Shown here: positions 1 to 14,461 of the stretch, piece after piece
Numbering within the stretch: position 1 is the first letter of the stretch
How the letters are laid out: every line of letters begins with the position of its first letter
Program-made: the position numbers and the translations under genes
Notes under the pieces: generated by a model
The model's database searches: none
Told to the model about the DNA's origin: nothing
What the model saw: the letters and a program-made list of their open reading frames with translations, nothing else
NCBI GenBank assembly: GCA_964516515.1
Contig: CAZEYA010000002.1
Location: 1,075-65,074 of the forward strand
From: an uncultured Kineosporiaceae bacterium
GTDB taxonomy: Bacteria; Actinomycetota; Actinomycetes; Actinomycetales; JBBAYJ01
Length of the DNA stretch: 64,000 nucleotides
Reading direction: 5' to 3'

Positions 1-1
1 C

Positions 2-163
2 GAACCACTCCCGGCGCCGGCTGTCAGAGACGACGTCCATGGATCGCTGGTGGAGCTGTGGGCGGTCATCGAGCGCGAGGTCATGGCCGCCGGAATTGCG
101 GACTGGGAGATGTGGCTCGAGTTCGACCGGATGCTGCCCGAGTCCGTGGCGGGCCACGTATGA
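2..163 (+). CDS. C-terminal fragment of an upstream gene of unknown function (5-prime end outside window)
   Basis: Frame is open from the window edge and reads ...GSLVELWAVIEREVMAAGIADWEMWLEFDRMLPESVAGHV*. Its TGA (161-163) overlaps the ATG (160-162) of the next gene. No family recognised. Confidence 0.3.
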   Translation, partial: EPLPAPAVRDDVHGSLVELWAVIEREVMAAGIADWEMWLEFDRMLPESVAGHV

Positions 164-933
164 GCCGGACCGTCATCGAGGTCCATGCGCTGCGGAAGAC
201 CTACGCCGACGCGCGCGGGATCGAGGTCCACGCGTTGCGCGGTGTCGATCTCGTGGTCGAAGCCGGCGAGTTCGTTGCGGTCATGGGGCCGTCGGGCTCC
301 GGCAAGTCCTCCCTGCTCCACATCGTCGGCGCGCTCGACACCGCCACCTCGGGGGATGTGACGGTGGGCGGCACAGACCTGGTCCGATGCGGGGAGCGGG
401 AGCGCACTACCTTCCGGCGAGAGCAAGTCGGCTTCGTCTTCCAGGCGTTCCACCTTGTCCCCAGCATGTCCGTGGCCGAGAACGTCGCCCTCTCGGCTGT
501 GGTGGCCGACCACCCGCCGTCGACGTGGCGCGGCAGGTCCCAGGAACTGCTCGACGCGATCGGACTGGGCGACCTCGCCGCCCGCTACCCGTCCGACTTG
601 TCGGGTGGGGAGCAGCAGCGCGTCGCTGTCGCGCGTGCGATATTCGGACGGCCTGCGGTCCTGCTCGCGGACGAGCCGACGGGGCAACTCGACGCCGCCA
701 ACGGAGACGCCGTGCTGAAGCTCATGGGTGCGAGTGTGACCGCCGGCCCAGGCTCCTGCGGGGTGCTCGCCACTCACGATCCACGGGCCGCGAGCCATGC
801 CCACCGTGTCGTGGCCATGCGCGACGGCGTGGTCGTCGACACCCTGAACCTCACGCGACCCGGCGCCCCCGCGGGGGGTGACGATCATGCTGCGGACCGC
901 ATTCGTTCGTGGGTTGCGTCAGCTCAGGCTTGA
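160..933 (+). CDS. ABC transporter ATP-binding protein (MacB/LolD-type NBD)
   Basis: Walker A GPSGSGKSS, signature LSGGEQQRVAVARA, Walker B VLLADEPTG. Start placed at ATG 160 (MSRTVIEVHAL...) rather than ORF-track start 58. Confidence 0.9.
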   Translation: MSRTVIEVHALRKTYADARGIEVHALRGVDLVVEAGEFVAVMGPSGSGKSSLLHIVGALDTATSGDVTVGGTDLVRCGERERTTFRREQVGFVFQAFHLVPSMSVAENVALSAVVADHPPSTWRGRSQELLDAIGLGDLAARYPSDLSGGEQQRVAVARAIFGRPAVLLADEPTGQLDAANGDAVLKLMGASVTAGPGSCGVLATHDPRAASHAHRVVAMRDGVVVDTLNLTRPGAPAGGDDHAADRIRSWVASAQA

Positions 934-3400
934 CGCCCGCCGGCATCTGCTGCCGGCGTTCGCACTGACCTGTGGCGTGGCGTTGCTCTTCGGCACACTC
1001 GTCAGCAGTAGCGGTGTCCAGCAACGTCTCGCCGAGGGAGCGGACTCACTGGGTGGCCTCGGTGAAGTGGGGGTCGTCCCACGACTACCCGGCGGGCTGC
1101 TGTCCGAGGCCGAGGTGGCTGCCGTGGCCGACCTTCCAGGTGTGGCCACGGCGGTCTCTACCTACAGCGAGAGCACGACGATCCGTTCGGTGGGGGTCCC
1201 GGTCGCCCGATCGGAGCGGGACATCACCGTCACCGGCTATCCCACCGACCTGAACAGCACACTGCTCGCGCTGCCGTCGTCGGGCCGCCTTCCGGCGCCG
1301 GGCACCGCGGAGGTGGCCGTGCCTGACGACATCGCCGATGACCTCGGGCTCGAACCCGGCGATCAACTGGAGGTAGCCACGACCACCGGCACCGTCAGAT
1401 GGTCCGTGGTGGGCATTCTGCCGTCCGCCGACCTCGGCGTCCTCGCCGTCGACAACGTCTTCGTCGACATCGACACGGCACGCACAGCCTTCGCGGCGCC
1501 GGATGCGGCGACGCGCGTCGACCTGATCCTGGCCTCGGACGTCTCGGTCGGAGACTGGACGGCTGCGGCCACGCCAAGCCTGCCGTCGGGTGTCCGGGTG
1601 CAGGACACCTCGGCGTTGCGTACGTCGTTCGAGCCGCTCCTCGACGCCGTCACCGTGGTTCTCGTGGCCACATCGCTGGTGACCCTCGGGGTGTCCACCA
1701 TGCTCGGATCCTTGGCCTTCGCCTCCGCCGTCGATGCGCGGGGGGCCACATACGCCACGATGCGTGCCGTCGGAGCCTCCAGGGGGTGGCTCGCGCGCAT
1801 CGTTCTCGCCGAGGCACTCGTCATCGGGAGCATCTGCGTGGGACTCGGCCTCGTCGCAGGTCTCGGCGTCGCTGCCGTACTCACCAGGGTCCTCGCCGCG
1901 GCGGGGAGCCTACCTGTGGCGACGGCAGGCATCGACATAGGCTCGCTCGTCGTCGCGGGGGCCGTCGGTCTGGTCGCAGCGGTCGCCGGCTCGCTGGTGG
2001 CGATTCTCCAGGTCGTGCGCCAACCTCCGACCCACGGCCTGCGGGGGACTGCGGTACGTCACCGGCGATGGCGTCCGGCGGTCGTGACCGTCGCCGGTGG
2101 GCTCGTGGCAGGTGGCATCCTCGTCCTGTTGGCCGGGCGGTCGGAGCTGGCGTTGGCGGGAGTCGCCGCCCTGCTGGTCGGGGCCGCCATGCTGGCGCCG
2201 ACCGCCCTGGTGGGTCTGGCGTTCGTGGTCCGGCCCAGGAGCTGGACCGGACGGGTAGCTGCAGTGCGCCTGCGCACCCACCAGGCATTGGGCCCGGTGA
2301 CCGGATTGACGACCCTGGTCGTTGCTCTCAGCGCCGCCCTCATCGTGAGTGTGGCGGCCATCGACACGGCGATGCGGACCCAGCTGGCGCGCCAGTTCGG
2401 CGCCGACGTGCAGGTCTCCTCCCCGGTTCCCGACGCACGGGTGACGGCGTCCATCGAAGCGGACGACAATGTGGCAGCGGTCTCAGGTACCGCCTTCGGA
2501 GAGGCGCGTCTCGTCATCGGCGATCCGAGGGACACCACGGCGGCCGAGCGTGACGAGGGCACCGCGGTCACGGTGCTCGCCGTCGATCCGGACACCTACT
2601 TCGACACCGCGCAGCTGCCGTGGCGCGAGGGCGATGACGTCAGCACCCCGGCTGCTCTGTCTGCCGGGGGAACCGTGGTGCTCCCGGCTGCGCTGGCGCA
2701 GAGCCAGGGCCTGGTGCTGGGTGACACCGTGACGTTGGAGGCGGCGACGGCGGCGCGGCAGCTCGAGGTGGTCGGGACCTACGCCTCGCTGGTCACCGGC
2801 ACCCAGGTGGTGGTCGACCGGGAGACAGGCGGGACGCTGGGTGTGACAGCCGTCACCGACTGGAACGTCCGCGCCGAGGAGGGCGTGGCGCCCCAGGAAT
2901 TGCGGGACGAGCTCGCCGCCGCCCTCAGTGGAGTCCCCGGGGTGTCCGTCATCACGGCGGCGGACCTACTCGAGCGGGCCTCGTCGGAACTGGCGGTGTA
3001 CGTCACAGCCGTCGCCGCCATCGTCGTCCTCGCCCTGACCATCGGTGCGACAGGGGCCGGCGGGGTCTTCGCCCTGGAGATCGCCCGGCGGCGGCGGGAG
3101 CTGGGCGTCCTGCGGGCCGTGGGTGCCACCCCGGGGGCCATGCGCCGGCTCGTCGCCTGGGAGGCAGCCCTGGTCGCCGTTGCCGCCGTCATCGTCGGTC
3201 TCGTCGTCGGGCAACTGGCCGGGGCGCTCCTGACGACCGTCATCGCCGAAGCGCTCGGCGCAACCCTCGTGCCGTCGTTCCAGCCGTTGGCCCTGATCGG
3301 CGTCGCCGTCGTCACCGCTGCGGCCCTACAGGTGGCAGCCCTCGCGCCGGGAGCCCGTGCCGTACGCCTCCAACCAGTCGCGACCCTCCGGACGGAGTGA
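878..3400 (+). CDS. FtsX/MacB-type ABC transporter permease (840 aa, duplicated FtsX-like module)
   Basis: Two hydrophobic 4-TM-like blocks separated by large soluble domains. The C-terminal block RRRELGVLRAVGATPGAMRRLVAWEAALVAVAAVIVGLVVG is typical of FtsX-family permeases. Its start (GTG 878 or ATG 887) overlaps the 3-prime end of the ATPase gene. Confidence 0.85.
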   Translation: MTIMLRTAFVRGLRQLRLDARRHLLPAFALTCGVALLFGTLVSSSGVQQRLAEGADSLGGLGEVGVVPRLPGGLLSEAEVAAVADLPGVATAVSTYSESTTIRSVGVPVARSERDITVTGYPTDLNSTLLALPSSGRLPAPGTAEVAVPDDIADDLGLEPGDQLEVATTTGTVRWSVVGILPSADLGVLAVDNVFVDIDTARTAFAAPDAATRVDLILASDVSVGDWTAAATPSLPSGVRVQDTSALRTSFEPLLDAVTVVLVATSLVTLGVSTMLGSLAFASAVDARGATYATMRAVGASRGWLARIVLAEALVIGSICVGLGLVAGLGVAAVLTRVLAAAGSLPVATAGIDIGSLVVAGAVGLVAAVAGSLVAILQVVRQPPTHGLRGTAVRHRRWRPAVVTVAGGLVAGGILVLLAGRSELALAGVAALLVGAAMLAPTALVGLAFVVRPRSWTGRVAAVRLRTHQALGPVTGLTTLVVALSAALIVSVAAIDTAMRTQLARQFGADVQVSSPVPDARVTASIEADDNVAAVSGTAFGEARLVIGDPRDTTAAERDEGTAVTVLAVDPDTYFDTAQLPWREGDDVSTPAALSAGGTVVLPAALAQSQGLVLGDTVTLEAATAARQLEVVGTYASLVTGTQVVVDRETGGTLGVTAVTDWNVRAEEGVAPQELRDELAAALSGVPGVSVITAADLLERASSELAVYVTAVAAIVVLALTIGATGAGGVFALEIARRRRELGVLRAVGATPGAMRRLVAWEAALVAVAAVIVGLVVGQLAGALLTTVIAEALGATLVPSFQPLALIGVAVVTAAALQVAALAPGARAVRLQPVATLRTE

Positions 3401-4542
3401 CAACCATGGCGTCGGTCGACGGTTCGCGAGGCGTGTCGCCACTGCGCCCCCGCCTGCGCGACAGCGTCCTCGTGTTCCAGCGGCACGAGCGCCTGCTGCA
3501 GTTCCTCTGTCTCATGGATTTGAGGGTGAAGGAGTTCGACGCCCCAAGCTTCGTCGCCGATCTGGTTCCGTTGCTGGACGGCTCCCGGACCTGCGACGAC
3601 CTCGCGGTGGCCCTGGACGGTTCCCAGGAGTTCTCGCTGGCCGGTCTGAGCGACGTGCTCAGGGTGATGCGCGACGAGCGCCTGCTCCACCGGGCAACCG
3701 ATGACTCGCAGAGCGCTGGGGGGCGTTACGAGCGCCAGGGCCGGCTCCTCGAGGAATTCATCGCCTCCTTCGATCACCTGCCGGCCTCGGTCCAGCAGTT
3801 GCAGCGCAGGTTGCTCGACTCCCATGTCGTCGTGGTCGGTGCCGGTGGCCTGGGCGGGCTCGTCCTGCAGTCTCTCGCCGCGGCCGGGGTAGGTCGACTG
3901 GAGGTCTTCGACCCGGACGTCGTCGAGCAGACCAACCTCAACCGCCAAGTCATCTACGGCCCCGCCGACCTGGGTGCGCCGAAGGTAGAGGCGGCCGCAC
4001 GCCGCCTCGAGGAGTTGAACCCGGACGTCATGGTGATCCCGCGACGCGAACGGATAAGCAGACCGGCGGACCTTGACGAGGCCGCTGTCCGGGCAGACCT
4101 TCTCATCAACTGTGCCGATGAGCCCAACGTCGGCGCCGTCTCCGATCTGGTCGCGGACGCGGCACACCCGGTCGGCACACCACACCTGGTCGGTGGGGCC
4201 TACGGCGCCAACCTCGGCGTCGCCGGCACGAGCGTCGTCCCTCATCGGACGACATGTTGGCGGTGTATTCGATCGGTCACCCGTAACGACCATGCACGAC
4301 TGGACGGTGTCGCGCTCAAGGGGCGTGGCCGTGGGAGTGGGACTCTCGCACCCATCACGAGCCTGGTCGGCAGCATCGTCGCGTGGGAGGCCTTGCGCAT
4401 CCTGCTCGATTTACCACTGGGCCTGGCCAACCAGGTCCGTGAGCTCGACATCTTCTCGCTGGAGTGGCGGGTACGAGAGATCAGCCCGCGCGACGGCTGC
4501 CCCCGCTGCCCGGACCGCGCGCTGGACCATGGCCGGATCTAG
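3397..4542 (+). CDS. ThiF/MoeB/MccB-like E1 adenylyltransferase with N-terminal PqqD-like (RRE-like) domain
   Basis: The N-terminal ~90 aa contain VADLVPLLDGSRTCDDLAVAL, resembling the PqqD/RRE motif. The core has the Rossmann motif VVVVGAGGLGGLV plus NLNRQ and LLINCADEP motifs of E1-like adenylating enzymes. Two CxxC pairs (CWRC, CPRC) fit a structural Zn site. GTG 3397 overlaps the permease stop (GTGA); ATG 3406 is an alternative start. Confidence 0.75.
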   Translation: MTTMASVDGSRGVSPLRPRLRDSVLVFQRHERLLQFLCLMDLRVKEFDAPSFVADLVPLLDGSRTCDDLAVALDGSQEFSLAGLSDVLRVMRDERLLHRATDDSQSAGGRYERQGRLLEEFIASFDHLPASVQQLQRRLLDSHVVVVGAGGLGGLVLQSLAAAGVGRLEVFDPDVVEQTNLNRQVIYGPADLGAPKVEAAARRLEELNPDVMVIPRRERISRPADLDEAAVRADLLINCADEPNVGAVSDLVADAAHPVGTPHLVGGAYGANLGVAGTSVVPHRTTCWRCIRSVTRNDHARLDGVALKGRGRGSGTLAPITSLVGSIVAWEALRILLDLPLGLANQVRELDIFSLEWRVREISPRDGCPRCPDRALDHGRI

Positions 4543-4548
4543 GCGGGG

Positions 4549-6384
4549 GTGAACGTGGTGACAGACCGCGAGCCCGGGGCGACCCCGGGCCCGGACAGCA
4601 GAGCCGGCTGGAGCCGGCGGGCGCGCATCCTCGTCGAGCCCCTCTTCACTCATCGGATCGACCTTGCTGTCCTCGCCGGCATCAGTCTTGCCAGCGCGGC
4701 AGCCGCCTTGGCTCAGCCCGTCGTGGTCAACATCATCGTCGGCGACGTTTCGAACGGGCAGGGCGTGGGTCCGTTGGCCTGGCTACTGCCCGCACTTTTC
4801 CTCATGGGCGCGCTGCTGCGCTCGGTCGAGGAGTACCGCTTGCAGTCCATGGCCGAGGACGTGGTCCTGGCCGTCCGGCGCCGCCTGGTCGAACACGTGC
4901 TGCGGCTGCGGATCGCGGAGTTCGATCAGCACCGGACGGGGGACCTCGTCGCCCGCCTCACGGCAGACGCCGGCGCCATCCGGAATGCACTGGTGCACGG
5001 GCTCTCCTCCGCGCTTAGTGGCACCTTCGTATTCGTGGGGGCACTCATCGGCATGCTGATCGTCGATCCCCTCCTGCTGGTGGTGACAGTTGCCGTCATC
5101 ACTGGAGCGACGCTGGCCGTTCTCGCTTTCGCTGGTCGCGTATCCCGCGCCAGTGCCGCTGTCCAGTCACTCGTCGGTCGCGTCGCCGCCATGTTGACTC
5201 GTTCGCTGGATGCCCTGCGGACAGTGCGGGCAGCGAATGCTACCGAGCGCGAAACGACCGCGCTGGTCGCACAGTGTGAGGACTCCCATGCCGCCGGGCT
5301 GAGACTGGCGCGCGCGCTCGCCCTCATCGCGCCTGCTTCCACCGTCACGATCCAGGTGTGCGCCGTCGCGATCATCGGTGTCGGGGGACTGCGGGTGGCC
5401 GCGGGGCAGTTGTCGGTCGCGGATCTCGCGACCTTCCTGCTCCTGCTCTTCTTTCTCCTGGTCCCCCTGACGCAGGCTTTCGGCAGCATCAGTGCGGTGG
5501 GCACGGCCGTCGGCGCTGCCGGACGTATCGCCGAGATCCTCGATCTGCCCCTGGAGAACGGGCGGCCTCCCGTTCAACGTGACCCGGTACCGCGTGGCCC
5601 CGGGTCCGACGACATCGCCGTCGCATTTGACGACGTCCATTTCTCGTACCCGGGAGCGATGTCTGACGGCCAGATGGCGACCCGCCCTTCTGGACCTGCC
5701 GCGCTCTGCGGGATCTCCTTCGATCTGCCGCGGGGAACGCGACTGGCGATCGTCGGTCCCTCGGGTGCGGGCAAGACAACGGTGCTCAGCCTGCTCGAGC
5801 GGTTCTACGAGCTCGACCGCGGTGTCATCCGCGTCGACGGCGTGGACATCCGGCAGTTCGATCACCGGGAGCTGCGGAGTCGCATCGGATACGTCGAACA
5901 GGGGGCGCCGGTGCTCGCTGGGACGTTGCGGGACAACCTTCTCCTCGCGTCACCGCACATGTCGGACGACGAGTGCGAGGCTGCGCTCGACGCGGTGGGT
6001 CTGTGGGCGCTGCGTTCACGCGGGACGTACTGGCTCGACCTCGATGTCGGTGAACGCGGCATCACACTGTCGGGTGGCGAGCGACAGCGGCTGGCCCTCG
6101 CCCGCGCCCTTCTCGGACGACCCCCCATCCTGCTCCTGGACGAATCCACCTCCAGCTTGGACAGTCGCAGTGAGAAGTTCGTAGGCCGAGCCGTCTCCCG
6201 GGCGACGACCGGGTGCACGGTGATCATCGTGGCCCACCGCCTGGCGACGGTCGTCGACTCCGACGCCATCCTCGTCCTCGATGAGGGTCGTGCTGTGGCC
6301 TACGGCACGCACGATGACCTCCTGAAGACGACGGCCCTGTACCGGCAGCTCGCCGAGCATCAACTTATCGCCAGCTTCGCGTAG
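4549..6384 (+). CDS. ABC exporter, fused permease/ATPase (MsbA/MdlB-type half transporter)
   Basis: N-terminal multi-TM exporter domain followed by an NBD with Walker A GPSGAGKTT, signature LSGGERQRLALARA, Walker B ILLLDEST and H-loop IIVAHR. Starts 7 nt after the ThiF-like stop. Confidence 0.9.
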   Translation: MNVVTDREPGATPGPDSRAGWSRRARILVEPLFTHRIDLAVLAGISLASAAAALAQPVVVNIIVGDVSNGQGVGPLAWLLPALFLMGALLRSVEEYRLQSMAEDVVLAVRRRLVEHVLRLRIAEFDQHRTGDLVARLTADAGAIRNALVHGLSSALSGTFVFVGALIGMLIVDPLLLVVTVAVITGATLAVLAFAGRVSRASAAVQSLVGRVAAMLTRSLDALRTVRAANATERETTALVAQCEDSHAAGLRLARALALIAPASTVTIQVCAVAIIGVGGLRVAAGQLSVADLATFLLLLFFLLVPLTQAFGSISAVGTAVGAAGRIAEILDLPLENGRPPVQRDPVPRGPGSDDIAVAFDDVHFSYPGAMSDGQMATRPSGPAALCGISFDLPRGTRLAIVGPSGAGKTTVLSLLERFYELDRGVIRVDGVDIRQFDHRELRSRIGYVEQGAPVLAGTLRDNLLLASPHMSDDECEAALDAVGLWALRSRGTYWLDLDVGERGITLSGGERQRLALARALLGRPPILLLDESTSSLDSRSEKFVGRAVSRATTGCTVIIVAHRLATVVDSDAILVLDEGRAVAYGTHDDLLKTTALYRQLAEHQLIASFA

Positions 6385-6447
6385 ACACATCGCGGGTCGC
6401 GGCATGTCGACTTCACACTCGGACGGCCTCACTCGTCTGATGAGAGT

Positions 6448-7218
6448 ATGGATTTGACCGAACCCGTGACATCGACGGCCATGACCACCCTGATCGACGA
6501 GCGGGGGGAGCACACCCGCGGATTGACCATCTTGCGCCGGGCGGCAGACGTGGCCCTGACAGCAGGATCGAGGGGCGCCGTGCGGTTGAACACGGACGCC
6601 CGCGTCGAGGAGACCGGCCTCGAGCTGCGGTGGAGCGAGGCCTACGTCGTGGACACGGCGGGAGGGGCGCTGAGCGTCGTCAAGGCACAGATCCCCGCAG
6701 ACCGGATCGCTGCGCTGCGGGCCGGTCGCCCGCTGCGGTGGCCGGCGCCGTCCGCCCGGCCGTCCACCAGAGCCATCGCGGGCGTCATCGCCCAGTTGGC
6801 CCGAACCGGTGGGCCGGCCGCGGCCGAACCCGTCGACGTGGTGGCCCGTTACATCGAGGAGTTCAAGAACCAGTCACGCTTCACCGTCTTCCCAAAACTG
6901 TTTGGCCCCGACTTCCGCCACCACTTCGATTTTCCCGGCCGGGGACCCGGGTTCGAGTCCTTCATGAGCGTCGGCCGGGACCTGCTCGGTTCGTTCAAGG
7001 AGTTGCACGTCACCGTGGATGACCTGTTCGGCGAAGGGGAGCTGGTGGTCGAGAGCAACACGGTCCACGCCGTACACCGGGGCGACTTCGCCGGCGTCGC
7101 GGGCACCGGCCGCCCGGTGACGTGGACGGAGATCCACTTCTACCGGGTAGTGGCCGGCCGCATCGTCGAGAACTGGCCGACCGTGGACGTCGAACGGCTC
7201 GTCGGGTCGCTCGGGTGA
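6448..7218 (+). CDS. SnoaL-like / ester-cyclase (NTF2-fold) domain protein with unrecognised ~125-aa N-terminal extension
   Basis: The C-terminal part (VDVVARYIEEFKNQSRF...FMSVGRDLLGSFKELHVTVDDLF...VTWTEIHFYRVVAGRIVENW) matches predicted ester cyclase/SnoaL-like proteins. The N-terminal half has no motif I recognise, so the start is uncertain. Confidence 0.65.
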   Translation: MDLTEPVTSTAMTTLIDERGEHTRGLTILRRAADVALTAGSRGAVRLNTDARVEETGLELRWSEAYVVDTAGGALSVVKAQIPADRIAALRAGRPLRWPAPSARPSTRAIAGVIAQLARTGGPAAAEPVDVVARYIEEFKNQSRFTVFPKLFGPDFRHHFDFPGRGPGFESFMSVGRDLLGSFKELHVTVDDLFGEGELVVESNTVHAVHRGDFAGVAGTGRPVTWTEIHFYRVVAGRIVENWPTVDVERLVGSLG

Positions 7219-7835
7219 GCCTGGCCCAGGATCGGCATGTCGACGACCTTGCCCTGGTGGCCCGCTGCCTGGACGCCCGGTTCGAGGCATGGGAGGAACT
7301 GATCCGCCGGTTGCAGCGGCCGGTGTACACCCTCGTCGTGCGGTTCGTCTGGTCCGTCCACGACGCCGAGGACGTGACGCAGGAGGTGCTGCTGAAGGTG
7401 GTCACAGTGCTGCACTCCTATCGCGGTGAGGCCGCGTTGACCACGTGGGCCTACCGCATCGCCAGCCGGCACCTGATCGACCTGGCCCGCCGCCCGAGCG
7501 AGGCGCTGACGTTTGACGAGGGCCGCGAGCACCTACTGGTGGGCCTGGCGGAGCCGGAATGGGCTGGTCCAGAGGCCACCGCACTGGCCGGGGAAGTCAA
7601 GATCGGGTGCTCTACGGCCGTGCTGGACCTGCCGGGACCCGACGCCGCCTGGGTGCTCGACGTGGATCCCACCGTGCACCGCAAGCGGCCGGTCCGGGGC
7701 CAGGCGCGGCGGCTGGTGGCCGACCTCGACACCCTCGGCGACGACCTGGCGATCATGCGCAGCAACCCCGACCTCGACCCTGTCAATTCGGTGCTGACCC
7801 GGCTGCGGGAGCTGGTGACCACGGGTGGTCTGTGA
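7215..7835 (+). CDS. ECF-type sigma-70 family protein with atypically short region 4
   Basis: Region 2 motifs are DAEDVTQEVLLKVV and TTWAYRIASRHLIDLARR. A KIGCSTAVL box is followed directly by DLPGPDAAWVLDVDPTVHRKR, a possible 4.2 HTH. GTG 7215 overlaps the TGA of the upstream gene (GTGA). Confidence 0.6.
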   Translation: MSLAQDRHVDDLALVARCLDARFEAWEELIRRLQRPVYTLVVRFVWSVHDAEDVTQEVLLKVVTVLHSYRGEAALTTWAYRIASRHLIDLARRPSEALTFDEGREHLLVGLAEPEWAGPEATALAGEVKIGCSTAVLDLPGPDAAWVLDVDPTVHRKRPVRGQARRLVADLDTLGDDLAIMRSNPDLDPVNSVLTRLRELVTTGGL

Positions 7836-7905
7836 CGAAGAGACCAAGGTGGCGGGCTGTGGGGGATAGCCAACACAGTGGTCGATTCGGCCAAGCGCTG
7901 CGCAC

Positions 7906-8160
7906 TTAGCCGGGTCCGTCCGTGCCAGCCCGCGCGTCAGCTGTAGGTGGATCCAGCAGGCGAGCCAGATGGTCGACCAGGTTGATCAAATCGTCGAGGC
8001 CAGCCAGGTTGTCCAGCACTAGGGCGTCGTCGACATCGGCGTACCGGTGCACCAGGACGTTCCGAAATCCCGCGGCCCCCGCCAGCCGTCGGCCCAGTCC
8101 CGGGTCGATCGACCCGCCACGACCCAGGGCGACGAAGGCGTCGGCGTTCGACGACGGCAC
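7906..8160 (-). CDS. DUF86/HepT-like HEPN domain protein, apparently N-terminally truncated (possible pseudogene)
   Basis: Contains the RNxxxHxY motif (GFRNVLVHRYADVD) typical of HepT toxins. The motif sits ~33 aa from the N-terminus of an 84-aa ORF. The frame stays open upstream into the Uma2 gene 3-prime end without an ATG, GTG or TTG. No MntA-like partner is adjacent. Confidence 0.5.
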   Translation of the reverse strand: MPSSNADAFVALGRGGSIDPGLGRRLAGAAGFRNVLVHRYADVDDALVLDNLAGLDDLINLVDHLARLLDPPTADARAGTDGPG

Positions 8161-8239
8161 TGGGCCGCCTTCGGTCGCCAGGACGATGTCAGCAAGGAAG
8201 GTCGCTGCGCCACCGTATGGCTTGGGCGGTGATCTGTTG

Positions 8240-8827
8240 TCAGCTGTAGCTGCCCAGATCCGTGACCGTGAGCGCCACCCACGGCAGTGCGGGGTCGCTC
8301 ACCACGTCGTCACCTCCACTGCGGTGGGTGCCGATGCGCTGGTATGCGCCGTTGATGAGGTGATGCACGGTCACCCTGGTCTCTGGCGCCAGTTCGACGA
8401 GCCAGAAGGACGCAATGCCGGCTAGGGCGAACTCCCGTGGCTTCTCCCGGTGGTCCGCCGTGGCAGTGCTGGGGCTGACCACCTCGACCGCCAGCACGAC
8501 GTCTACGGCCGGTGTACTGGTGACGTCCCAGGTCTGCCCGGGCGTCACCCGGGCGACGACGACATCGGGGATGCGGGCGGCGACGGGGACAGTTGACAGC
8601 ACGACGATCTCCTCCTCCAGCACCCGCATATCGCCGGGCGCGCAGGCGCGCAAAGCAGCGGCGATGAGACTCTGGATGTTGCGGTGTCGTTGCGTGGCAC
8701 GGGTCATCGGTCGCAGCACCCCGTCGATGATCTCGGCCCTGGTGTCCTCCGGAAGGGCGAGGTACTCGGCCAGAGACAGCGGTGTCCCAGCGTCGATCAC
8801 CGACCCTGGGCGTTCGAGCAGCATCAT
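8240..8827 (-). CDS. Uma2 family (DUF820) endonuclease
   Basis: LSLAEYLALPEDTRAEIIDGVL...IPDVVVA...VVLAVEVVSPST... is typical of the Uma2/PD-(D/E)xK family. Start set at ATG 8827, which is preceded by AAGGAGG with 5-nt spacing. Confidence 0.85.
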   Translation of the reverse strand: MMLLERPGSVIDAGTPLSLAEYLALPEDTRAEIIDGVLRPMTRATQRHRNIQSLIAAALRACAPGDMRVLEEEIVVLSTVPVAARIPDVVVARVTPGQTWDVTSTPAVDVVLAVEVVSPSTATADHREKPREFALAGIASFWLVELAPETRVTVHHLINGAYQRIGTHRSGGDDVVSDPALPWVALTVTDLGSYS

Positions 8828-9037
8828 GCGCGCCTCCTTCGTCATCTCCAGTGTAGGCAGCGGGCCCTGTGGACAACGGTCGCACGCTCCGCCTGTGGAC
8901 GGATCCGCCGTGCGGCGAACCCCCTCCCTGCCGGCGAAGGGACGCCGGGAACGCGACCTCAGCGCGGGTCCGCTCGGCAGGGAGGATGACGGCGGGCCCG
9001 AGTTCACACTGACACCCGCTGCTGCGCCTTACAGGGC

Positions 9038-9444
9038 ATGGACTCCTCCTCAGGCACCGTCGACGTGGTCGCGCGCTACATCGAGGAGTTCAAGAACAAG
9101 TCGCACTTCGCTGTCTTCCCGACGTTGTTCGCGTCCGACTTCCGTCACCACTTCGATTCCCGGGCCGTGGCCCCGGCTTCGAATTCTTCACGAGTGTGGG
9201 ACGCGACCTCCTGGGATCGTTCTCGGAGTTGCACGTCACGGTGGACGACCTGTTGGGCCACGATGATCTGGTGGTCGAGAGCAACACGGTCCGCGCCGTG
9301 CACAGCGGCGCCTTCGCCGGCGTCGCCGCCACCGGACGGCCGGTCACGTGGACGGAGATCCACTCCTACCGTGTCGTGGCCGGGCGCATCGCGGAGAACT
9401 GGCCCACCGTCGACGTGGAGCGACTCGTCGGGTCCCTCGGGTGA
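9038..9444 (+). pseudogene. Frameshifted paralogue of the SnoaL-like gene (copy 2)
   Basis: VDVVARYIEEFKNKSHFAVFPTLFASDFRHHFD (frame of 9038) continues as GRDLLGSFSELHVTVDDLL...VTWTEIHSYRVVAGRIAENW in the frame of 9196..9444. Relative to copy 1 (cacttcgattttcccggcc) copy 2 reads cacttcgattcccgggcc, so there is an indel near 9160. Confidence 0.7.
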
Positions 9445-9622
9445 CCCAGGCCCAGGACCGGCATGGCGACGATCTCGCGCTGGTGGCCCGGCGCGCCGGC
9501 TGGTGGCCGACCTCGACGCCCTCGGCGACGACCTGGCGATCATGCGGAGCAATCCGGACCTGGATCCTGGCGAATCGGTGCTGGCCCGGCTGCGGGAGCT
9601 GGTGACCACCGGCGGTCTGTGA
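9441..9622 (+). pseudogene. Remnant of ECF-sigma paralogue (copy 2) with ~0.45-kb internal deletion and frame change
   Basis: Starts VTQAQDRHGDDLALVAR (compare copy 1 VSLAQDRHVDDLALVAR). It then jumps, in another frame, to RRLVADLDALGDDLAIMRSNPDLDPGESVLARLRELVTTGGL*, which matches the last 42 aa of the 7215..7835 product. Confidence 0.65.
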
Positions 9623-9645
9623 TCCGACGGCGGCTGCGGCCGCCG

Positions 9646-10530
9646 TCAGGTCAGGTCACGCTCCCGGTACAGCCCCTCTTGGGCGACGCTGATGGCCAGC
9701 CGGCCGTCGCGGCTGAACATCCGGGCGTTGTTGAGCCCCCGGCTGGCCGAGGCCGAGGGGCTGTGCGTCACCGACAGCAGCCAGTCGTCGGCGCGGAACG
9801 GGCGATGGAACCACATGGCATGGTCGATGCTCGCGATGGATAACCCCGAGGCCAGCCATGAGCGGCCGTGCGCGCGCAGCACCGGTTCGAGGATGCCGTA
9901 GTCGCTGGCGTACGTCGCGACCGCGGCGTGCAGCAGCGGGTCGTCGTCGATGCCGCCCGCCAGCCGCCACCACGCCATGCTGTCCGGGGCGGGCGGGTCC
10001 TGCGGTGCCAGGAAGATCGACGGTGTCACGAACCGCAGGTCGAGCGGCTGGCTGTACGCCCAGTGTCGGGCGTTGTCATGGTCGATCTCGCCGTACAGGT
10101 CGGCCATCGAGGGCAGGCTCAGCGGATCCGGCGCCGCCGGCATGGCATCCGCGTGCTCGACGCCGTCAGCGGCCACCTGGAACGACGCGATCATCGACAG
10201 GATCGGCACCTCGTCCTGCAGCGCGTGCACCCGGCGGGCCGAGAGCGACCGGCCGTCCCGCAGTCGCTCCACCGCGAGCACGATCGGCTGGTCCAGGTCA
10301 CCAGGTCGCAGGAAGTACCCGTGCAGCGAGTGCGGCAACCGTTCGGCTGCCACTGTCCGGCCGGCCGCCATGAGCGCCTGCCCCAGCACCTGGCCACCGA
10401 AGACCCGCGGCGCGGTGTGACGCTCGCTGCGCGCGACGAAGGTGTCCGCGGCGTCGCCGGGCTTGACGTCCAGCAGATCCAGCAGCGCGGTGGTGCGCTC
10501 GACAGCTCGGGGCAGCGTCGACTCGGTCAT
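9646..10530 (-). CDS. tesB: Acyl-CoA thioesterase II
   Basis: RVFGGQVLGQALMAAGRTV...HSLHGYFLRPGD...ERLRDGRSLSARRV is the typical TesB double hot-dog signature. Start set at ATG 10530 (MTESTLPRAV). Confidence 0.85.
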   Translation of the reverse strand: MTESTLPRAVERTTALLDLLDVKPGDAADTFVARSERHTAPRVFGGQVLGQALMAAGRTVAAERLPHSLHGYFLRPGDLDQPIVLAVERLRDGRSLSARRVHALQDEVPILSMIASFQVAADGVEHADAMPAAPDPLSLPSMADLYGEIDHDNARHWAYSQPLDLRFVTPSIFLAPQDPPAPDSMAWWRLAGGIDDDPLLHAAVATYASDYGILEPVLRAHGRSWLASGLSIASIDHAMWFHRPFRADDWLLSVTHSPSASASRGLNNARMFSRDGRLAISVAQEGLYRERDLT

Positions 10531-10579
10531 TACCGAACGGTAACCGAGATCGGGCCGGCGACGATCGGACCATGGCAGC

Positions 10580-11032
10580 ATGCCCGTCATGCCTGGCCCG
10601 CTCACCGTTCGCGTCGCGCTGCGCTGGTCGGACATGGACGTGTACGGGCACGTCAACAACACTGAATTCCTCCGGCTGCTCGAACAGGCACGGGTGCAGG
10701 CGCTGCCGTTGCGGCGCGAGCCCGGCGTCACCGGCTTCCTCGTGGTCCGTAACGAGATCGAGTACCTGCGGCCGCTGCCGTACCAGGACGAGCCGGTGAG
10801 CGTGGTGATGTGGTGTACGGCGCTTCGCGGTGCCGACTTCGACCTCGGCTACGAGGTCGTGACCGACCCGGGCGCAGCCGCGACGGTCCACGCGATCGCC
10901 GCGACCACCCTCGTGGCCTACGACTTCCCGACCGAACGGCCGCGCCGGCTCACCACGGACGAGCGCGAACACCTGGCCGCGATCAGCGGCCCGCCCATCG
11001 AGTTCAGGAGGAGACGCCCAACCACACCGTGA
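10580..11032 (+). CDS. 4HBT/YbgC-type acyl-CoA thioesterase (possible DHNA-CoA thioesterase)
   Basis: VRVALRWSDMDVYGHVNNTEFLRLLEQAR is the classic hot-dog 4HBT N-terminus. The link to the men pathway rests on genomic context only. Confidence 0.75.
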   Translation: MPVMPGPLTVRVALRWSDMDVYGHVNNTEFLRLLEQARVQALPLRREPGVTGFLVVRNEIEYLRPLPYQDEPVSVVMWCTALRGADFDLGYEVVTDPGAAATVHAIAATTLVAYDFPTERPRRLTTDEREHLAAISGPPIEFRRRRPTTP

Positions 11033-12689
11033 CGTCGGTGGGGACGGCGAGGCCGGCGTCGGTGTGGATCAGCTCCGCGCTGGCCACCAGCACAGTGGCG
11101 CCGTCCGGCACGGCCACCGGCTGCTCACCCAGGTTGGCGATCACCAGCACCCCACCCGGGCGGTGCAGCGCGATCGTCTCGAACGAGTCGTATCCCTCCG
11201 CCCACGTGAGCTCGCCGAGCCCCAGGCCGAGGCTGCGACGCAACTCCAGCGCCGTCCGGTACAGCTCCAGCGTCGACCCGTCGACCCCGGTCTGCGCCGC
11301 GCGCGACAGCGCCGCCCACTGCGCAGGCTGCGGCAGCCACGAGGTCTCAGCCGGACCGAAGCCGTACGAGGGCGCGTCGCCATGCCATGGGATCGGTACC
11401 CGGCAGCCATCGCGGCCCACCATCTCACCGCCGGTCCGGACGTACGTCGGGTCCTGGCGCCGTTCGTCGGGCAGCGTCGTGTGCTCGGGCAGCCCCAGCT
11501 CCTCGCCCTGGTAGAGGTACGCCGAGCCGGGCAAGGCCAGCATGACCAGGGTCGCCGCCCGCGCCCGCAGCAGCCCCAGCTCGGTGTTCGGCTGTGGGGA
11601 GCGGCTGCTGATACCGGCGTGGCCGGCGGCGGTGGGGTCGTGCGGCGGGTACCCGAAGCGGGTGGCGTGGCGGATCACGTCGTGGTTGCTCAGCACCCAC
11701 GTCACCGGCGCACCCACCGCGCCCGACTCCTTCATCGACAGGTCGATGACCGCCCGCTGCTCCTGCGCCGCCCAGGACGTTTCCAGGTACGGAAAGTTGA
11801 AAGCCTGGTGCAGCTCGTCCGGCCGCGAATAGCGCGCCAGCCGGGAGTACGGGAAGACCCATGCCTCGGCGACAGCGATCCTGTCACCGTCGTAGGAGTC
11901 CAGCAGCCGGCGCCACTCGCGGTAGACCTCGTGCACCTCCTCCTGGTCCCACATCGGGGGCAGTGCACCGCCCTCGTTGGCGGTCGCGAACGGGTCGTGG
12001 TGCTCGGTCGGGTAGTGCCAATCCGGCAGGTCGTCCACCTTGATGAGGCTGTGCGCGACGTCGACGCGGAAACCGTCGACGCCGTGGTCGAGCCAGAACC
12101 GCATGACGTCCAGCACCTCCTCGTGCACCTCCCGGTTGGACCAGTTGAGGTCCGGCTGCGAGGAGTCGAACAGATGCAGGTACCACTGCCCGTGGCCGCC
12201 GTCGGCCTCGGTGACCCGGGTCCAGGCGGACCCGCCGAAGACCGAGCGCCAGTTGTTCGGCGGCTGGTCGCCCGCCGGGCCGATGCCGTCGCGGAACAGG
12301 TACCGCGCCCGCTCCCGGCTGCCCGGGGGCGAGGCGAGCGCGGCGGTGAACCAGACGTGCTCGTCCGAGGTGTGGTTGGGGACGAGATCGACGATGAGCC
12401 GCATGCCGAGCCGGTGGACCTCCTCGATCAGCGTCCTCGCGTCCGCCAGGGTGCCGAACCGGGGGTCTACCTGCCGGAAGTCGGCCACGTCGTAGCCGGC
12501 GTCGTGCATCGGCGACAGATAGAACGGCGAGAGCCAGATGGCGTCCACGCCCAGCTCGGCGAGATCACCCAGTCGCGAGGTGATGCCGGGCAGGTCGCCC
12601 ATCCCGTCACCGTCGGCGTCCGCGAACGAACGGGGATAGATCTGATAGAAGACCGCGCTGCGCCACCATTCCCGACCCGATTCGCTCAC
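11004..12689 (-). CDS. GH13 alpha-glucosidase / oligo-1,6-glucosidase family
   Basis: WWRSAVFYQIYPRSFADADGDGMGDLPGITSRLGDLAELGVDAIWLSPFY, then DLVPNHTSDEH, GFRVDVAH and EAW motifs. Confidence 0.9.
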   Translation of the reverse strand: MSESGREWWRSAVFYQIYPRSFADADGDGMGDLPGITSRLGDLAELGVDAIWLSPFYLSPMHDAGYDVADFRQVDPRFGTLADARTLIEEVHRLGMRLIVDLVPNHTSDEHVWFTAALASPPGSRERARYLFRDGIGPAGDQPPNNWRSVFGGSAWTRVTEADGGHGQWYLHLFDSSQPDLNWSNREVHEEVLDVMRFWLDHGVDGFRVDVAHSLIKVDDLPDWHYPTEHHDPFATANEGGALPPMWDQEEVHEVYREWRRLLDSYDGDRIAVAEAWVFPYSRLARYSRPDELHQAFNFPYLETSWAAQEQRAVIDLSMKESGAVGAPVTWVLSNHDVIRHATRFGYPPHDPTAAGHAGISSRSPQPNTELGLLRARAATLVMLALPGSAYLYQGEELGLPEHTTLPDERRQDPTYVRTGGEMVGRDGCRVPIPWHGDAPSYGFGPAETSWLPQPAQWAALSRAAQTGVDGSTLELYRTALELRRSLGLGLGELTWAEGYDSFETIALHRPGGVLVIANLGEQPVAVPDGATVLVASAELIHTDAGLAVPTDVTVWLGVSS

Positions 12690-12726
12690 CCGGTCAGCGA
12701 ACCACAGGTGCCCGCCGGATGCCCTG

Positions 12727-13122
12727 TCAGAGCGCAGGCAGGGTGTTGACCATGCTCTGGGCGGCTCGTTCGAGGTAGTCCCACAACTGGGCCTCGTACA
12801 GCGGCGGCAGGTCCAGCGACACCACGGCCGCCCGCATGTGCCGCAGCCAGCGGTCCCGGGCGTCGGGGTCGACCGCGTACGGGGCGTGCCGCATCCGCAG
12901 CCGTGGGTGGCCCCGCTGGTCGCTGTACGTCGTCGGCCCGCCCCAGTACTGCTCCAGGAACAGCAGCAGCCGCTCGGCGGCCGGGCCGAGGTCCTCCTCG
13001 GGGTACATCTCGGTCAGCACGGGGTCGGCGGCGACACCGGCGTAGAACCGCTCGACGAGCCGCCGGAACGTCTCGTGCCCGCCGACCGCGTCGTAGAACG
13101 TCTGCGTTGCCGGTTCGTTCAC
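12727..13122 (-). CDS. glbO: Group II truncated haemoglobin
   Basis: [28 protein letters not shown]...[21 protein letters not shown] is the trHbO signature. Confidence 0.85.
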
Positions 13123-13427
13123 TGCTCGCTCGCGTCACGACGAGCGGGTGGCGGGGTCCGGGAGGCGTCGGCTGCGGCGTCCTCGGCGGCGGCATCCGTC
13201 CGGAGGAACTCCGAGAACCGCTCCCGGGGTGGCGCCTCGCGTCGCTGCAGCAGGGCGGCCGCGACGGACTCGCGCTGCCGGCGGAGCAACACATAGGACA
13301 GCGCCAGCGACACCACGGCCGCCAGGCCGACGGCCAGCAGTCCCTGGGCGCCGAGGGCGCGGAGACCGACGTAGGCGACGACGAACAGGCCGATCCGCAG
13401 CGCCGAGTAGACGGCTATGGGGCGCAT
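13119..13427 (-). CDS. DUF4229 domain membrane protein
   Basis: Two-TM N-terminus [22 protein letters not shown]...[24 protein letters not shown], typical of DUF4229. 4-nt overlap with glbO. Confidence 0.7.
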
Positions 13428-13459
13428 GAGACCAGCGTAGGCCGCCTTACGCTGGCCTC

Positions 13460-13657
13460 GTGCTCTGGCTCCGCGCTGCCGTCGTGCTCGTCGTGGTCGG
13501 GCTCACCGTCTACGCCTTCATCGACTGGTTCCAGACACCACCGCCGCAGGCACGGGCGCTGCGTTACGCCTGGTGGATCGTCATCATCCTGCTGCTGCCG
13601 GTCGTCGGACCGATGCTGTGGCTGTGGGCGGGCCGGCCGTCCAGCTCGCCGCCGTAG
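13460..13657 (+). CDS. PLD nuclease N-terminal domain (PLDc_N) small membrane protein
   Basis: 65 aa, two TM segments, WWIVIILLLPVVGPMLWLWAGRP motif. Confidence 0.7.
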   Translation: MLWLRAAVVLVVVGLTVYAFIDWFQTPPPQARALRYAWWIVIILLLPVVGPMLWLWAGRPSSSPP

Positions 13658-13756
13658 ATCTCCGCTGGGTCACTGGTTCGCCACGGTCGGCCCATCGTGG
13701 AGAGTCAGTCGCGTACCACTGGGACCCTGTCGATACTGACTGCTGTGGCCACCGGG

Positions 13757-14461
13757 TCAGTCGATCGGCCCGCGCTGGCGCACGATCGTCATCCGGCGCA
13801 CGTGCGGCTCCACGACAGCCGGCGCCGCCAGCCAACGCAGCACCGCGGGAGCGTGGCTGAGTACGAGCTCCGGCTCGCGGGTCCCTTCCAGCACACCGCC
13901 GAGAATCGCGCGCCGCCGCCGTCCCCGGGCTCCCAGCCACGCGGCGGTGACCAACGCCGACCGTTCCGAGCCGTTCAGGTGGCGATCGATCAGCGGTGCC
14001 AGGCTCCACTCGACGAGGTCCAGCGCGGCCAGCAACGGTTGCCGCATCGCCTCGATCGTGGTGCCGCACTGCTTGGCGTCCGTGGCGCGGCCGCCGTCCT
14101 GCCAGCGCAACGCCGCGCCCTGCGCGCGCTCGCGGGGCGAATCCAGCGCGGCCAGTCGCTGCTGCGCCCGCGCGACGACCGCTGCCGGCCGGCCGTCATC
14201 GCCGGCCGAGCTCGGTAGCCGTTGCTGCAATGCCGGCCACAGCGTGCTGCTCTGGGCCTGGCGATAATGGTGCAACGAGTCCAGCACCTCCCACACCCAC
14301 GAGCCGACGACCCGGGCGCGGGCCTCGTCACCGTCCGGGACGGCCAGGATGACGTCGGGCAGCAGGTCGAACTCGCGCCGGAACATCCGGTGGATGTCGG
14401 CGACCTCGGCCCCGAACGCGCCCCCCGCCTCGTCATCGGTCACGGGTTCGTTATCGGTCAC
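13757..14461 (-). CDS. Hemerythrin-like domain protein (tentative)
   Basis: [14 protein letters not shown]...[16 protein letters not shown] resembles actinobacterial hemerythrin HHE-type proteins. GTG 14461 overlaps the menA stop (GTGA). Both the start and the family call are tentative. Confidence 0.5.

Follow-up and report, generated by a model that had tools for sequence, protein, structure and literature searches.

What does an adenylyltransferase of the ThiF family act on when its gene sits in a tight row of transporter genes, with neither a precursor peptide nor a partner enzyme in view? This question is raised by positions 2–6,384 of a 64,000-nucleotide stretch of DNA (hereafter the window) from an uncultured Kineosporiaceae bacterium (contig CAZEYA010000002.1, assembly GCA_964516515.1), in which an initial annotation, made from the letters alone, had recognised a five-gene operon encoding a ThiF-like enzyme with an N-terminal segment resembling a RiPP recognition element (RRE) and two ABC systems, and had proposed a peptide-adenylating pathway for a ribosomally synthesised and post-translationally modified peptide (RiPP). 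Comparison with homologous loci leads us to conclude that this region is probably the enzyme and transport part of a RiPP-type operon, whose class-defining enzyme is an RRE-fused ThiF-like adenylyltransferase (TLAT), and that the cluster very probably modifies and exports a tiny Cys-rich ribosomal peptide.

The proposal of a peptide-adenylating system is supported by an intact E1 site, an RRE-type domain and a conserved small open reading frame (ORF), and we infer the chemistry by analogy with known ThiF-like RiPP enzymes; an intact E1/ThiF domain, a fused N-terminal winged helix and a linked, conserved short precursor are the features of a TLAT RiPP system. The statement that the enzyme had no partner did not hold, since the truncated first gene of the window is the 3′ end of an acyltransferase gene that strictly co-occurs with it.

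Small Cys-rich peptide genes precede the enzyme and transport genes

When the small ORFs from the 1.5 kb that precede the acyltransferase gene were compared all against all, one proved to be conserved in all ten loci compared, and a search of all six frames for C-x(1,10)-C-[MLIV]-C-[TS]-stop matched that position only, in one to three tandem copies, in every locus with upstream DNA. The motif was found nowhere else in about 20 loci (up to 21 kb), nor in any of the six frames of the 64-kb window. The earlier remark that no precursor was visible is thus true of the window, and the small ORF that syntenic loci had been expected to share is present in every one of them that includes upstream DNA.

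These ORFs comprise 24–29 codons and lie 60–130 nt upstream of the acyltransferase gene. The encoded peptides have a conserved N-terminal half, M-x-K-x-x-[DE]-x-x-L-x-x-G, and end in C-x(2-6)-C-[ML]-C-[TS], as exemplified in the main clade of loci (clade 1) by MEMISEDVLEAGATLACNSGCMCT (Arthrobacter), MQKISDVALRSGATLRCDRGAGCLCT (Lumbricidophila), MEKTHDEELRSGATLACNDHCMCT (Cellulomonas) and MNKIESTTLKPGSAARCNGGCLCT (Frigoribacterium). A conserved C-terminal Asn or Glu, which the initial annotation had suggested looking for, was not found: all clade-1 precursors listed end in Thr or Ser. Among the curated NCBIfam models, none matches the precursors.

A GGAGG(T)G-like Shine-Dalgarno sequence was present 5–9 nt before the ATG or GTG in all 18 copies checked. 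Among 13 genes of equal length, the invariant residues L9, G12, C17, C21, C23 and the C-terminal T/S use two to four different codons each and all three stop codons occur, which argues for selection on the peptide rather than on the DNA. Moreover, a long GC-rich hairpin (stem 11–20 bp) follows the last precursor copy in ten of ten loci folded, with sequences that differ between loci and a z-score of -2.4 to -5.5 in eight of them; other RiPP operons are likewise known to have a hairpin after the precursor gene, which raises the level of precursor transcripts relative to those of the enzymes. Given the ribosome-binding sites, the codon variety at invariant residues and the conserved hairpin, these small upstream ORFs are real genes.

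The initial annotation had also considered that the precursor might lie upstream of the window, and it was recovered there, about 0.9–1.1 kb before position 1, on near-identical contigs. Exact-sequence look-up with the ABC ATPase of the window returned four metagenome contigs with 0–9 mismatches over an overlap of up to 6.5 kb, all extending upstream; on one of them, L024 (9 mismatches in 6500 nt), window position 1 corresponds to position 5842. These near-identical contigs (99.9%) carry two tandem 24-codon genes encoding MTKTED[AE]TLE[PA]GATLACDNRCLCT, and the precursors of the window organism are MTKTEDATLEPGATLACDNRCLCT (L024:4747-4821) and MTKTEDETLEAGATLACDNRCLCT (L024:4892-4966). Both genes lie ~1,095-876 nt before the window start, each with its own ribosome-binding site, and are followed by a hairpin of -50 kcal/mol.

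Two other loci carry three tandem precursor paralogues each (L009:3077-3521 and L016:3413-3763). In these paralogues the Gly/Ser-rich spacer from the first to the second Cys ranges from x3 to x6, and the fixed parts are limited to the G-x-x-x-x-C segment and the three residues next to the stop; since this spacer varies, the size of a ring involving the first Cys, if such a ring forms, is not conserved.

Conserved gene order and a second clade

A motif scan for the ThiF family across one genome for each of 185,579 species retrieved 10 loci, nine of them from Micrococcales or related bacteria (Arthrobacter, Sinomonas, Rothia, Leifsonia, Frigoribacterium, Ca. Lumbricidophila and the unclassified 'bacterium RCC_150') and one from Streptomyces. 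The order acyltransferase, ABC ATPase, FtsX permease, ThiF was common to all nine non-Streptomyces loci, and recurred in three more to which ThiF homologues led, one of them in a Cellulomonas metagenome-assembled genome (MAG). A metagenome scan seeded with the acyltransferase, using a profile of clade-1 members only, yielded 8 loci, with the four genes in order in all six contigs that were long enough. The ThiF-seeded and the independent acyltransferase-seeded searches thereby converged on one architecture, shared by about 20 Micrococcales and metagenome loci: one to three precursor genes, a GC hairpin, acyltransferase, ABC ATPase, FtsX/MacB permease and ThiF. Because this order is kept in about 20 loci at 33–57% protein identity, its conservation is far beyond chance.

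In most genomes, including L005, L009, L010, L013 and L014, the G+C content of the cluster lies 2–6 points under that of its flanks, and in Arthrobacter ramosus a PhdYeFM-type antitoxin gene is found just upstream of it (L005:5365-5856). The low G+C content points to horizontal spread and, together with the antitoxin neighbour, suggests a horizontally acquired island. In the Cellulomonas MAG (GCA_031181165.1, L017:10873-17116), the five-gene row runs on without gaps into genes for a UDP-glycosyltransferase, a fusion of a PP-binding domain with an aminotransferase (alpha-oxoamine-synthase-like), a methyltransferase and a second ABC ATPase with permease; this row may be an extended, further-tailored version of the pathway.

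The Streptomyces homologue (33–35% identity to the window ThiF-like protein), together with Nonomuraea longispora and two metagenome contigs, defines a second clade, in which the order is precursor, ThiF, acyltransferase and a major facilitator superfamily (MFS) transporter. Clade-2 precursors are peptides of 18–19 amino acids with GSC or GSCA at the C-terminus (MIKKIQVVIARTDKNGSC, MMKKVATVISRGDKNGSC, MTKVVEIIVRGDSSGGSCA, MTKVNEMIVRGESSGGSCA and MIVKIEETESLRDKTGSC), and a GGAGGTG ribosome-binding site precedes each of their genes. A family-specific motif of the ThiF-like enzyme, H-[ILV]-V-G-G-[AG]-Y (residues 263–269), occurs in 46 of 238 retrieved ThiF-like proteins, and these are exactly the two acyltransferase-linked clades. 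Since clade 2 keeps the ThiF–acyltransferase pair with a different precursor and a different pump, the comparison shows that this pair is the core of the system.

A full-length LanB gene lies directly upstream in two of the four clade-2 loci, accompanied by LanC in Streptomyces. In Streptomyces sp. CA-111067 (L015:4758-9683) and in L020 (5268-8671), lanthipeptide genes precede the clade-2 module, and L015 also contains a divergent LanA-like ORF, MDSEKIKDLFDIDLDAIPFEKDAVAATAEESTPPSFVSVCWWC; the lanthipeptide genes and the module may form one hybrid cluster or two adjacent ones. No NCBIfam model was found for two unannotated ORFs of L015, and one of the two (12123-13952), which overlaps a region matching the clade-2 MFS gene, may be mis-framed. 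The Nonomuraea longispora module (L021:1-2879 and 6755-11566) is flanked on one side by divergent ketoreductase (KR), acyl carrier protein (ACP) and two ketosynthase (KS) genes in the order KR-ACP-KS-KS, which could supply a dedicated acyl-ACP, and on the other by P450, terpene synthase, polyprenyl synthase and P450 genes.

Two further candidates, P0035 (Cryptosporangium, L019) and P0045 (L023, a methyltransferase gene with ThiF), were rejected as family members: they are without the acyltransferase and the signature motif and thus represent different families. The Cryptosporangium sp. locus (L019:8001-10458), which combines an RRE-ThiF-like gene (37% identity over the E1 part) with an M50-like membrane protease and a 40-codon ORF, may be another ThiF-linked peptide system.

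The ThiF-like protein resembles MccB and PaaA over its full length

The protein matches Pfam ThiF (PF00899) at 2.6e-48 (164.7 bits, cut-off 28.1) and consists of an N-terminal winged helix (about residues 15–100) and an E1 adenylation domain (about 110–375). The motifs named in the initial annotation were all located, namely GAGGLG (148–153), NLNRQ (180–184), INCADEP (237–243), CWRC (287–290) and CPRC (368–371), as was the PqqD-like segment LVPLLDGSRTCDDLAVAL (57–74), and they are invariant in an alignment of 29 family members sharing 42–57% identity. The GxGGxG loop, D172/D174, R183, K196, D241 and the four zinc Cys, likewise invariant in these 29 members, align with E. coli ThiF and MoeB, where they match the P-loop, the Asp pair, the NLxRQ Arg, the Lys, the catalytic Asp of DxxD and both zinc CxxC pairs. 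On the strength of this correspondence with the P-loop, catalytic and zinc residues of ThiF/MoeB, the adenylation site looks functional.

With the family alignment as input, AlphaFold gave a model (predicted local distance difference test score, pLDDT, 87; predicted template-modelling score, pTM, 0.85) that places three strands (24–48) and then three helices (52–93) ahead of the E1 domain. In Foldseek searches of the PDB, all MccB chains ranked at the top (E 5e-20, template-modelling (TM) score 0.70 over ~370 columns, full-length MccB), PaaA followed with a TM score of 0.62, and ThiF, MoeB and UBA5 covered the E1 part only (TM 0.52). Sequence profile searches of the PDB likewise placed MccB first (1e-39) and PaaA at 3e-34, with the PaaA match reaching into the N-terminal domain. 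A profile of the N-terminal domain by itself gave weak but coherent matches to RRE proteins: PbtF at 1.5e-3, PqqD at 0.013 over the whole domain, PaaA at 0.13 and LynD at 1.2. Pfam PaaA-like_N matched seven of 16 family members (best 3e-6) and PqqD three of 16; on the whole window protein, Pfam gave no PqqD or RRE match at E<=0.01. The top matches of the N-terminal domain, designer pentatricopeptide repeat proteins, were dismissed as a repeat artefact in which nine weak stretches around an L-I-D-G motif are summed. RRE similarity at the N-terminus, on which the earlier proposal turned, thus finds support in the predicted winged helix, the full-length fold match to MccB/PaaA and weak profile matches, and to judge from the model the protein is an MccB/PaaA-like RRE–E1 fusion, as first proposed.

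The enzyme might instead be an ordinary sulfur-carrier E1 (MoeB/ThiF/MoeZ-like) for cofactor or thio-metabolite synthesis, sited among transporter genes by chance: its E1 domain is closest in sequence to E. coli ThiF (1.7e-27) and MoeB (1.6e-22), and its best NCBIfam similarities are ThiF, UbaA and MoeB. The scores, however, fall far short of the curated cut-offs (ThiF 132 bits against 275, MoeB 121 against 449), the protein has an extra N-terminal winged-helix domain, and its distribution is rare and patchy (10 loci in 185,579 species genomes), in clusters whose G+C content is, in most genomes, 2–6 points below that of the flanks. The initial annotation had noted the absence of a YcaO gene and had remarked that ThiS/MoaD-type neighbours would indicate cofactor synthesis; neither gene occurs in any locus with gene calls, nor was a ThiS/MoaD (PF02597) or rhodanese partner found in the annotated loci. 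We regard the sulfur-carrier explanation as extremely unlikely.

The absence of YcaO also bears on a second alternative, in which the ThiF-like protein would be a leader-binding docking protein ('C'/Ocin-ThiF-like) of an azoline or thiazole/oxazole-modified microcin (TOMM) pathway and an unlinked YcaO would make thiazol(in)es. The Cys/Thr-rich C-x-C-T terminus of the precursors is reminiscent of TOMM cores, TIGR03882, the model for TOMM leader-binding proteins, gives a weak match (1.6e-5), and the Joint Genome Institute (JGI) gives several distant homologues the name 'cyclodehydratase domain'. That match, however, scores 25.2 bits where the cut-off is 36.9. Docking-type proteins lose the residues for ATP binding and catalysis, all of which are retained here, and the invariant partner is an acyltransferase, not a YcaO, which is missing from all loci with gene calls. 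This explanation is accordingly very improbable in our view.

An acyltransferase of the PatA/LpxL family is the obligatory partner

The 53-residue fragment at the window start is 51% identical to the C-terminus of a 312-aa Arthrobacter ramosus protein encoded next to the ABC ATPase on its upstream side, and the full gene (312 aa, L024:5066-6004) starts about 775 nt upstream of the window. As the window carries the last 53 residues only, domain, fold and catalytic-residue tests were run on orthologues. These score 23–44 bits with PF03279 (gathering cut-off 22.3), and the family profile matches PatA (2e-6) and also LpxM in the PDB. The invariant H136 (P-L-H-L-G-P-S-Y) and E204 (F-P-E-L-D-P-R-G) align with a His and a Glu of PatA, which we take to be its catalytic pair or charge relay, and a family signature W-E-M-W-x-E-F-D is kept. 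In Foldseek searches with the AlphaFold model (pLDDT 90.5), PatA, LpxM and PlsC were the sole significant folds.

Compared with PatA and LpxL/LpxM, the cluster enzyme has the same fold (TM 0.69–0.74 to PatA), keeps the catalytic His and charge-relay Glu and, like PatA, has no N-terminal transmembrane helix; it differs in sharing about 20% identity, in an HxxxxD/E box that reads H-L-G-P-S-Y, and in forming a small clade of its own, always beside the ThiF-like gene and the mini-ORF. An exhaustive profile search of 1.84 billion representatives found about 30 full-length relatives at E<=1e-30, after which matches grade into general lysophospholipid acyltransferases (LPLATs); a word-indexed search had given about 20 relatives, on contigs that match in length those bearing the ThiF family, a figure that the exhaustive search raised to about 30 representative clusters. 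Searching a plasmid collection gave no homologue. Because the enzyme is strictly linked to the ThiF-like gene and the mini-ORF, its substrate is probably a peptide rather than phosphatidylinositol mannoside or lipid A.

The kinship with lipid acyltransferases (best matches PatA and LpxM) also invites a different explanation for the whole row, as an envelope lipid or glycolipid pathway in which the acyltransferase and the Lol/MacB-like transporter serve an acylated envelope lipid, the ThiF-like enzyme activates a non-peptide carboxylate and the mini-ORF and hairpin act as a ribosome-dependent attenuator. MacB/Lol-type transporters handle lipidated cargo, a short ORF and a strong hairpin directly before the first enzyme gene are the classical attenuator layout, and ACP, KS or glycosyltransferase genes neighbour some loci. 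An attenuator, however, needs neither tandem copies nor strong ribosome-binding sites, and the mini-ORF occurs in two to three tandem copies, each with such a site; its non-Cys residues L9, G12, [DE]5-6 and C-terminal T/S are under protein-level selection, and the hairpins are without the alternative-pairing layout and the T-runs of attenuators. Furthermore, the ThiF-like enzyme has an RRE-type domain and resembles MccB/PaaA in full length, and in clade 2 the ThiF–acyltransferase pair is accompanied by another short peptide and by an MFS transporter. Taken together, these data make the envelope-lipid pathway distinctly unlikely.

Transporters of the cluster

The ABC ATPase, kept at the same position in all clade-1 loci, has LolD, YbbA, MacB and DarD as its best NCBIfam similarities, all under the curated cut-offs. 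The permease matches Pfam FtsX (6.6e-21) in two stretches and has its hydrophobic segments in two blocks, and its orthologues show MacB_PCD and FtsX twice each; a separate LolD/MacB-like ATPase with an FtsX-domain permease that bears extracytoplasmic domains is the composition of a MacB/FtsX-type ABC transporter. The exporter encoded after ThiF is a fused transmembrane and nucleotide-binding domain protein (Pfam ABC_membrane 4e-33, ABC_tran 1e-30) in which Pfam finds no C39 peptidase domain.

The initial annotation had suggested examining whether the ThiF subfamily co-occurs with both kinds of pump. The MacB/FtsX pair is indeed present in all clade-1 loci; the MsbA-type gene is found in some only, with orthologues (41–49% identity) after ThiF in L016, L017 and L018 and none in the Arthrobacter, Leifsonia, Rothia, Sinomonas, Frigoribacterium and Lumbricidophila loci. 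As it follows ThiF only in the window organism and these three other loci, the MsbA-type pump belongs to the accessory part of the cluster. Product export or immunity is presumably the task of the MacB-type pump, whose place is taken in clade 2 by the MFS transporter.

Proposed mechanism and its weak points

In the RiPP pathway that we propose, the winged-helix domain of the ThiF-like enzyme would bind the conserved N-terminal half of the 24-mer, and the E1 domain would use ATP to adenylate a peptide carboxylate, most likely that of the C-terminal Thr/Ser (as in IndF and EnfB) or, alternatively, the near-invariant Asp/Glu at position 5–6 (as in GrcB and PaaA). A thiolactone macrocycle could then form, with loss of water, by attack of one of the three invariant Cys on the acyl-adenylate. 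The acyltransferase, in which the PatA His/Glu pair is kept, would add a fatty acyl group from acyl-ACP or acyl-CoA to yield a lipopeptide, or might take the peptide thioester itself as acyl donor. The KR-ACP-KS-KS genes in Nonomuraea and the ACP–aminotransferase fusion in Cellulomonas lend weak support to the fatty-acyl option. Finally, the MacB-type pump and, here, the MsbA-type pump would export the product and/or protect the producer. As the cluster has no annotated leader protease, the peptide may stay untrimmed, with its 24 residues all in the product; microcin C and enterofaecin are precedents.

Several points weigh against this reading. PatA and LpxL/LpxM (PF03279) act on lipids or glycolipids, not on peptides, and an LPLAT-type enzyme acting in RiPP tailoring was not found in literature searches. 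The RRE assignment leans mainly on the predicted fold, the sequence matches of the N-terminal domain to PqqD and PaaA being weak (E 1e-3 to 0.1). It is hard to see a single C-terminal chemistry for both clades, because the precursors of clade 1 end in Thr/Ser and those of clade 2 in Cys/Ala, and no leader protease is present in the cluster as annotated. The small ORF and hairpin could also be read as a leader-peptide attenuator. Lastly, each chemical step, that is carboxylate adenylation, Cys capture and acyl transfer, is one that we infer from the analysis of the genes.

The two enzymes might also act together in another way, by a C-terminal conjugation of the 24-residue ribosomal peptide in the style of ubiquitin or Atg8, although we consider this unlikely. 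The E1-like enzyme would adenylate the peptide C-terminus and a neighbouring Cys would trap the thioester; the LPLAT enzyme would then move the whole peptidyl group to a hydroxyl of a membrane lipid, glycolipid or other acceptor, and the C-terminally lipid-anchored peptide would be extracted by the Lol/MacB-like transporter. LPLAT enzymes normally take acyl-thioester donors, and the E1-like enzyme and the acyltransferase are invariably paired in both clades, despite the different precursors and pumps.

Organisation of the gene row and its surroundings

The five genes of the region (G+C ~70%) lie on one strand with minimal spacing, as judged from the ORF listing and the sequence (Table 1). Pfam confirms the assignments, and in NCBIfam all five stay below the curated cut-offs of the models. 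With the upstream contigs taken into account, the unit comprises seven genes rather than the five first described: two precursors, the acyltransferase and the four complete genes of the window.

Table 1 Features of the window, with alternative starts where two are plausible
Feature	Coordinates	Strand	Remarks
Acyltransferase, 3′ end (last 53 codons)	2..163	+	PatA/LpxL-family, PF03279, LPLAT; stop TGA 161-163
ABC ATPase, 257 aa	160..933	+	LolD/MacB/FtsE type; Pfam ABC_tran 1.5e-31
Duplicated FtsX/MacB-type permease	887..3400	+	837 aa from ATG 887 / 840 aa from GTG 878
RRE-ThiF-like adenylyltransferase	3406..4542	+	378 aa from ATG 3406 / 381 aa from GTG 3397
MsbA/HlyB-type ABC exporter	4555..6384	+	609 aa from GTG 4555 / 611 aa from GTG 4549
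SnoaL-like gene	6448-7218		
ECF-type sigma (extracytoplasmic function) gene	7122-7835		
HepT-like gene	7906-8160	-	
Uma2-family gene	8240-9007	-	

The tight junctions that the initial annotation described could largely be retraced. The ATGA at 160–163 is present, the ATPase start codon overlapping the upstream stop codon, and the ATPase/permease overlap amounts to 47–56 nt and recurs in homologous loci; public gene calls start the permease at the equivalent of the ATG. The GTGA at 3397 is also present in the sequence, although the overlap it would imply is less likely than a 5-nt gap, because a GGAG precedes the ATG at 3406 by 8 nt and public gene calls begin the protein there. In an exact-sequence look-up, the 378-aa form of the ThiF-like protein was matched publicly and the 381-aa translation was not. 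The gap described as 7 nt between ThiF (stop TAG, 4540–4542) and the MsbA-type gene is tight, but really measures 6 nt to the upstream GTG or 12 nt to the downstream one, which gene callers use.

Rfam (at gathering thresholds) and ARAGORN gave no match within the window, and a consensus scan of positions 1–7500 for promoters and terminators returned nothing meaningful. Downstream of the row, partial second copies of the SnoaL C-terminus and sigma fragments (73–87% identical) occur at about 9157–9619, and the layout of 6448–9622 looks like a duplication broken by insertion.

Comparison with known systems

All known ThiF-like RiPP enzymes adenylate a peptide carboxylate, which is then attacked by a nucleophile (PMC12596934, PMC12150305, PMC12250964). 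Five outcomes of TLAT chemistry are described, namely a phosphoramidate in microcin C, a bicycle in pantocin, a Glu-Cys thiolactone formed by GrcB, an imide by EnfB and an indolylamide by IndF (PMC12596934, PMC12250964, PMC12150305), and none of these five listed reaction types has an acyltransferase partner or an origin in Actinobacteria (2025 reviews; PMC12596934).

MccB of microcin C7 (E. coli) and PaaA of pantocin A are the best sequence and fold matches, and share with the cluster enzyme an RRE-like clamp and an E1 domain with a zinc site, and with the cluster a short precursor, linked pumps and, for microcin C, the lack of a dedicated protease. In structural alignment, however, they are only 17–20% identical to it, and there are no homologues of MccD/E/F or PaaB in the cluster, where the LPLAT acyltransferase is the obligatory partner. 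The cluster precursors are without the terminal Asn of MccA (ending in Thr/Ser in clade 1 and in Cys/Ala in clade 2) and without the Glu-Glu-Asn core of PaaP, and therefore neither phosphoramidate nor indolizidinone chemistry is expected; no oxygenase gene, moreover, lies beside the core genes in the annotated loci.

GrcB (streptococcal thiolactone), IndF (indolylamide) and EnfB (enterofaecin, a product likewise made without a protease) resemble the cluster in carboxylate adenylation by an RRE-ThiF enzyme, at a side chain or the C-terminus, and in minimal clusters with transporters; in these three systems a residue 2–4 positions away attacks, which gives a small C-terminal macrocycle (PMC12596934, PMC12150305, PMC12250964). 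Compared by published description only, they differ in their Firmicutes origin, in unrelated precursor motifs and in having radical-SAM partners or none, and not one of them has an acyltransferase partner or a three-Cys C-terminal motif.

The sole described pairing of an acyltransferase with a ThiF-like domain that our literature searches found is OxzAB, where an N-acyltransferase and a ThiF-nitroreductase make an oxazolone; it likewise proceeds by acylation, then carboxylate activation and cyclisation, but it is not a RiPP system, acts on free amino acids and has neither an RRE nor a precursor peptide (PMC12596934). If a fatty acid is added, the product would also be a ribosomal lipopeptide like the lipidated RiPPs (selidamides, goadvionins, lipolanthines, lipoavitides and DAG-RiPPs; PMC8784127, PMC13056109). 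An LPLAT/PatA-type enzyme was not found among these in literature searches, which also returned no described ThiF-plus-LPLAT RiPP system. These lipidated RiPPs are known to use GNAT N-acyltransferases, hybrid polyketide synthase/fatty acid synthase (PKS/FAS) enzymes or the Lgt/Lnt lipoprotein pathway. The DAG-RiPP paper (PMC13056109) was set aside as a precedent, as it concerns unrelated MNIO enzymes.

The cluster probably represents a so far uncharacterised TLAT-RiPP family, in which both the partner enzyme and the precursor motif are new. Its new elements are the three-Cys C-terminal motif of the precursor, the obligatory PatA/LpxL-type acyltransferase and a portable ThiF–acyltransferase module that also occurs beside class I lanthipeptide genes in Streptomyces. 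As the core consists of a 24-aa peptide and two enzymes, and several hosts are culturable (Arthrobacter ramosus, Arthrobacter sp. KN11-1C, Leifsonia, Sinomonas terricola and Rothia halotolerans), the chemistry is directly testable and might yield a new tool for peptide macrocyclisation or lipidation, or a new bioactive compound. Among ribosomal peptide natural products, ThiF-like adenylyltransferases are emerging as a family of class-defining enzymes, and the cluster stands as a sixth candidate family beside the five described reaction types (PMC12596934).

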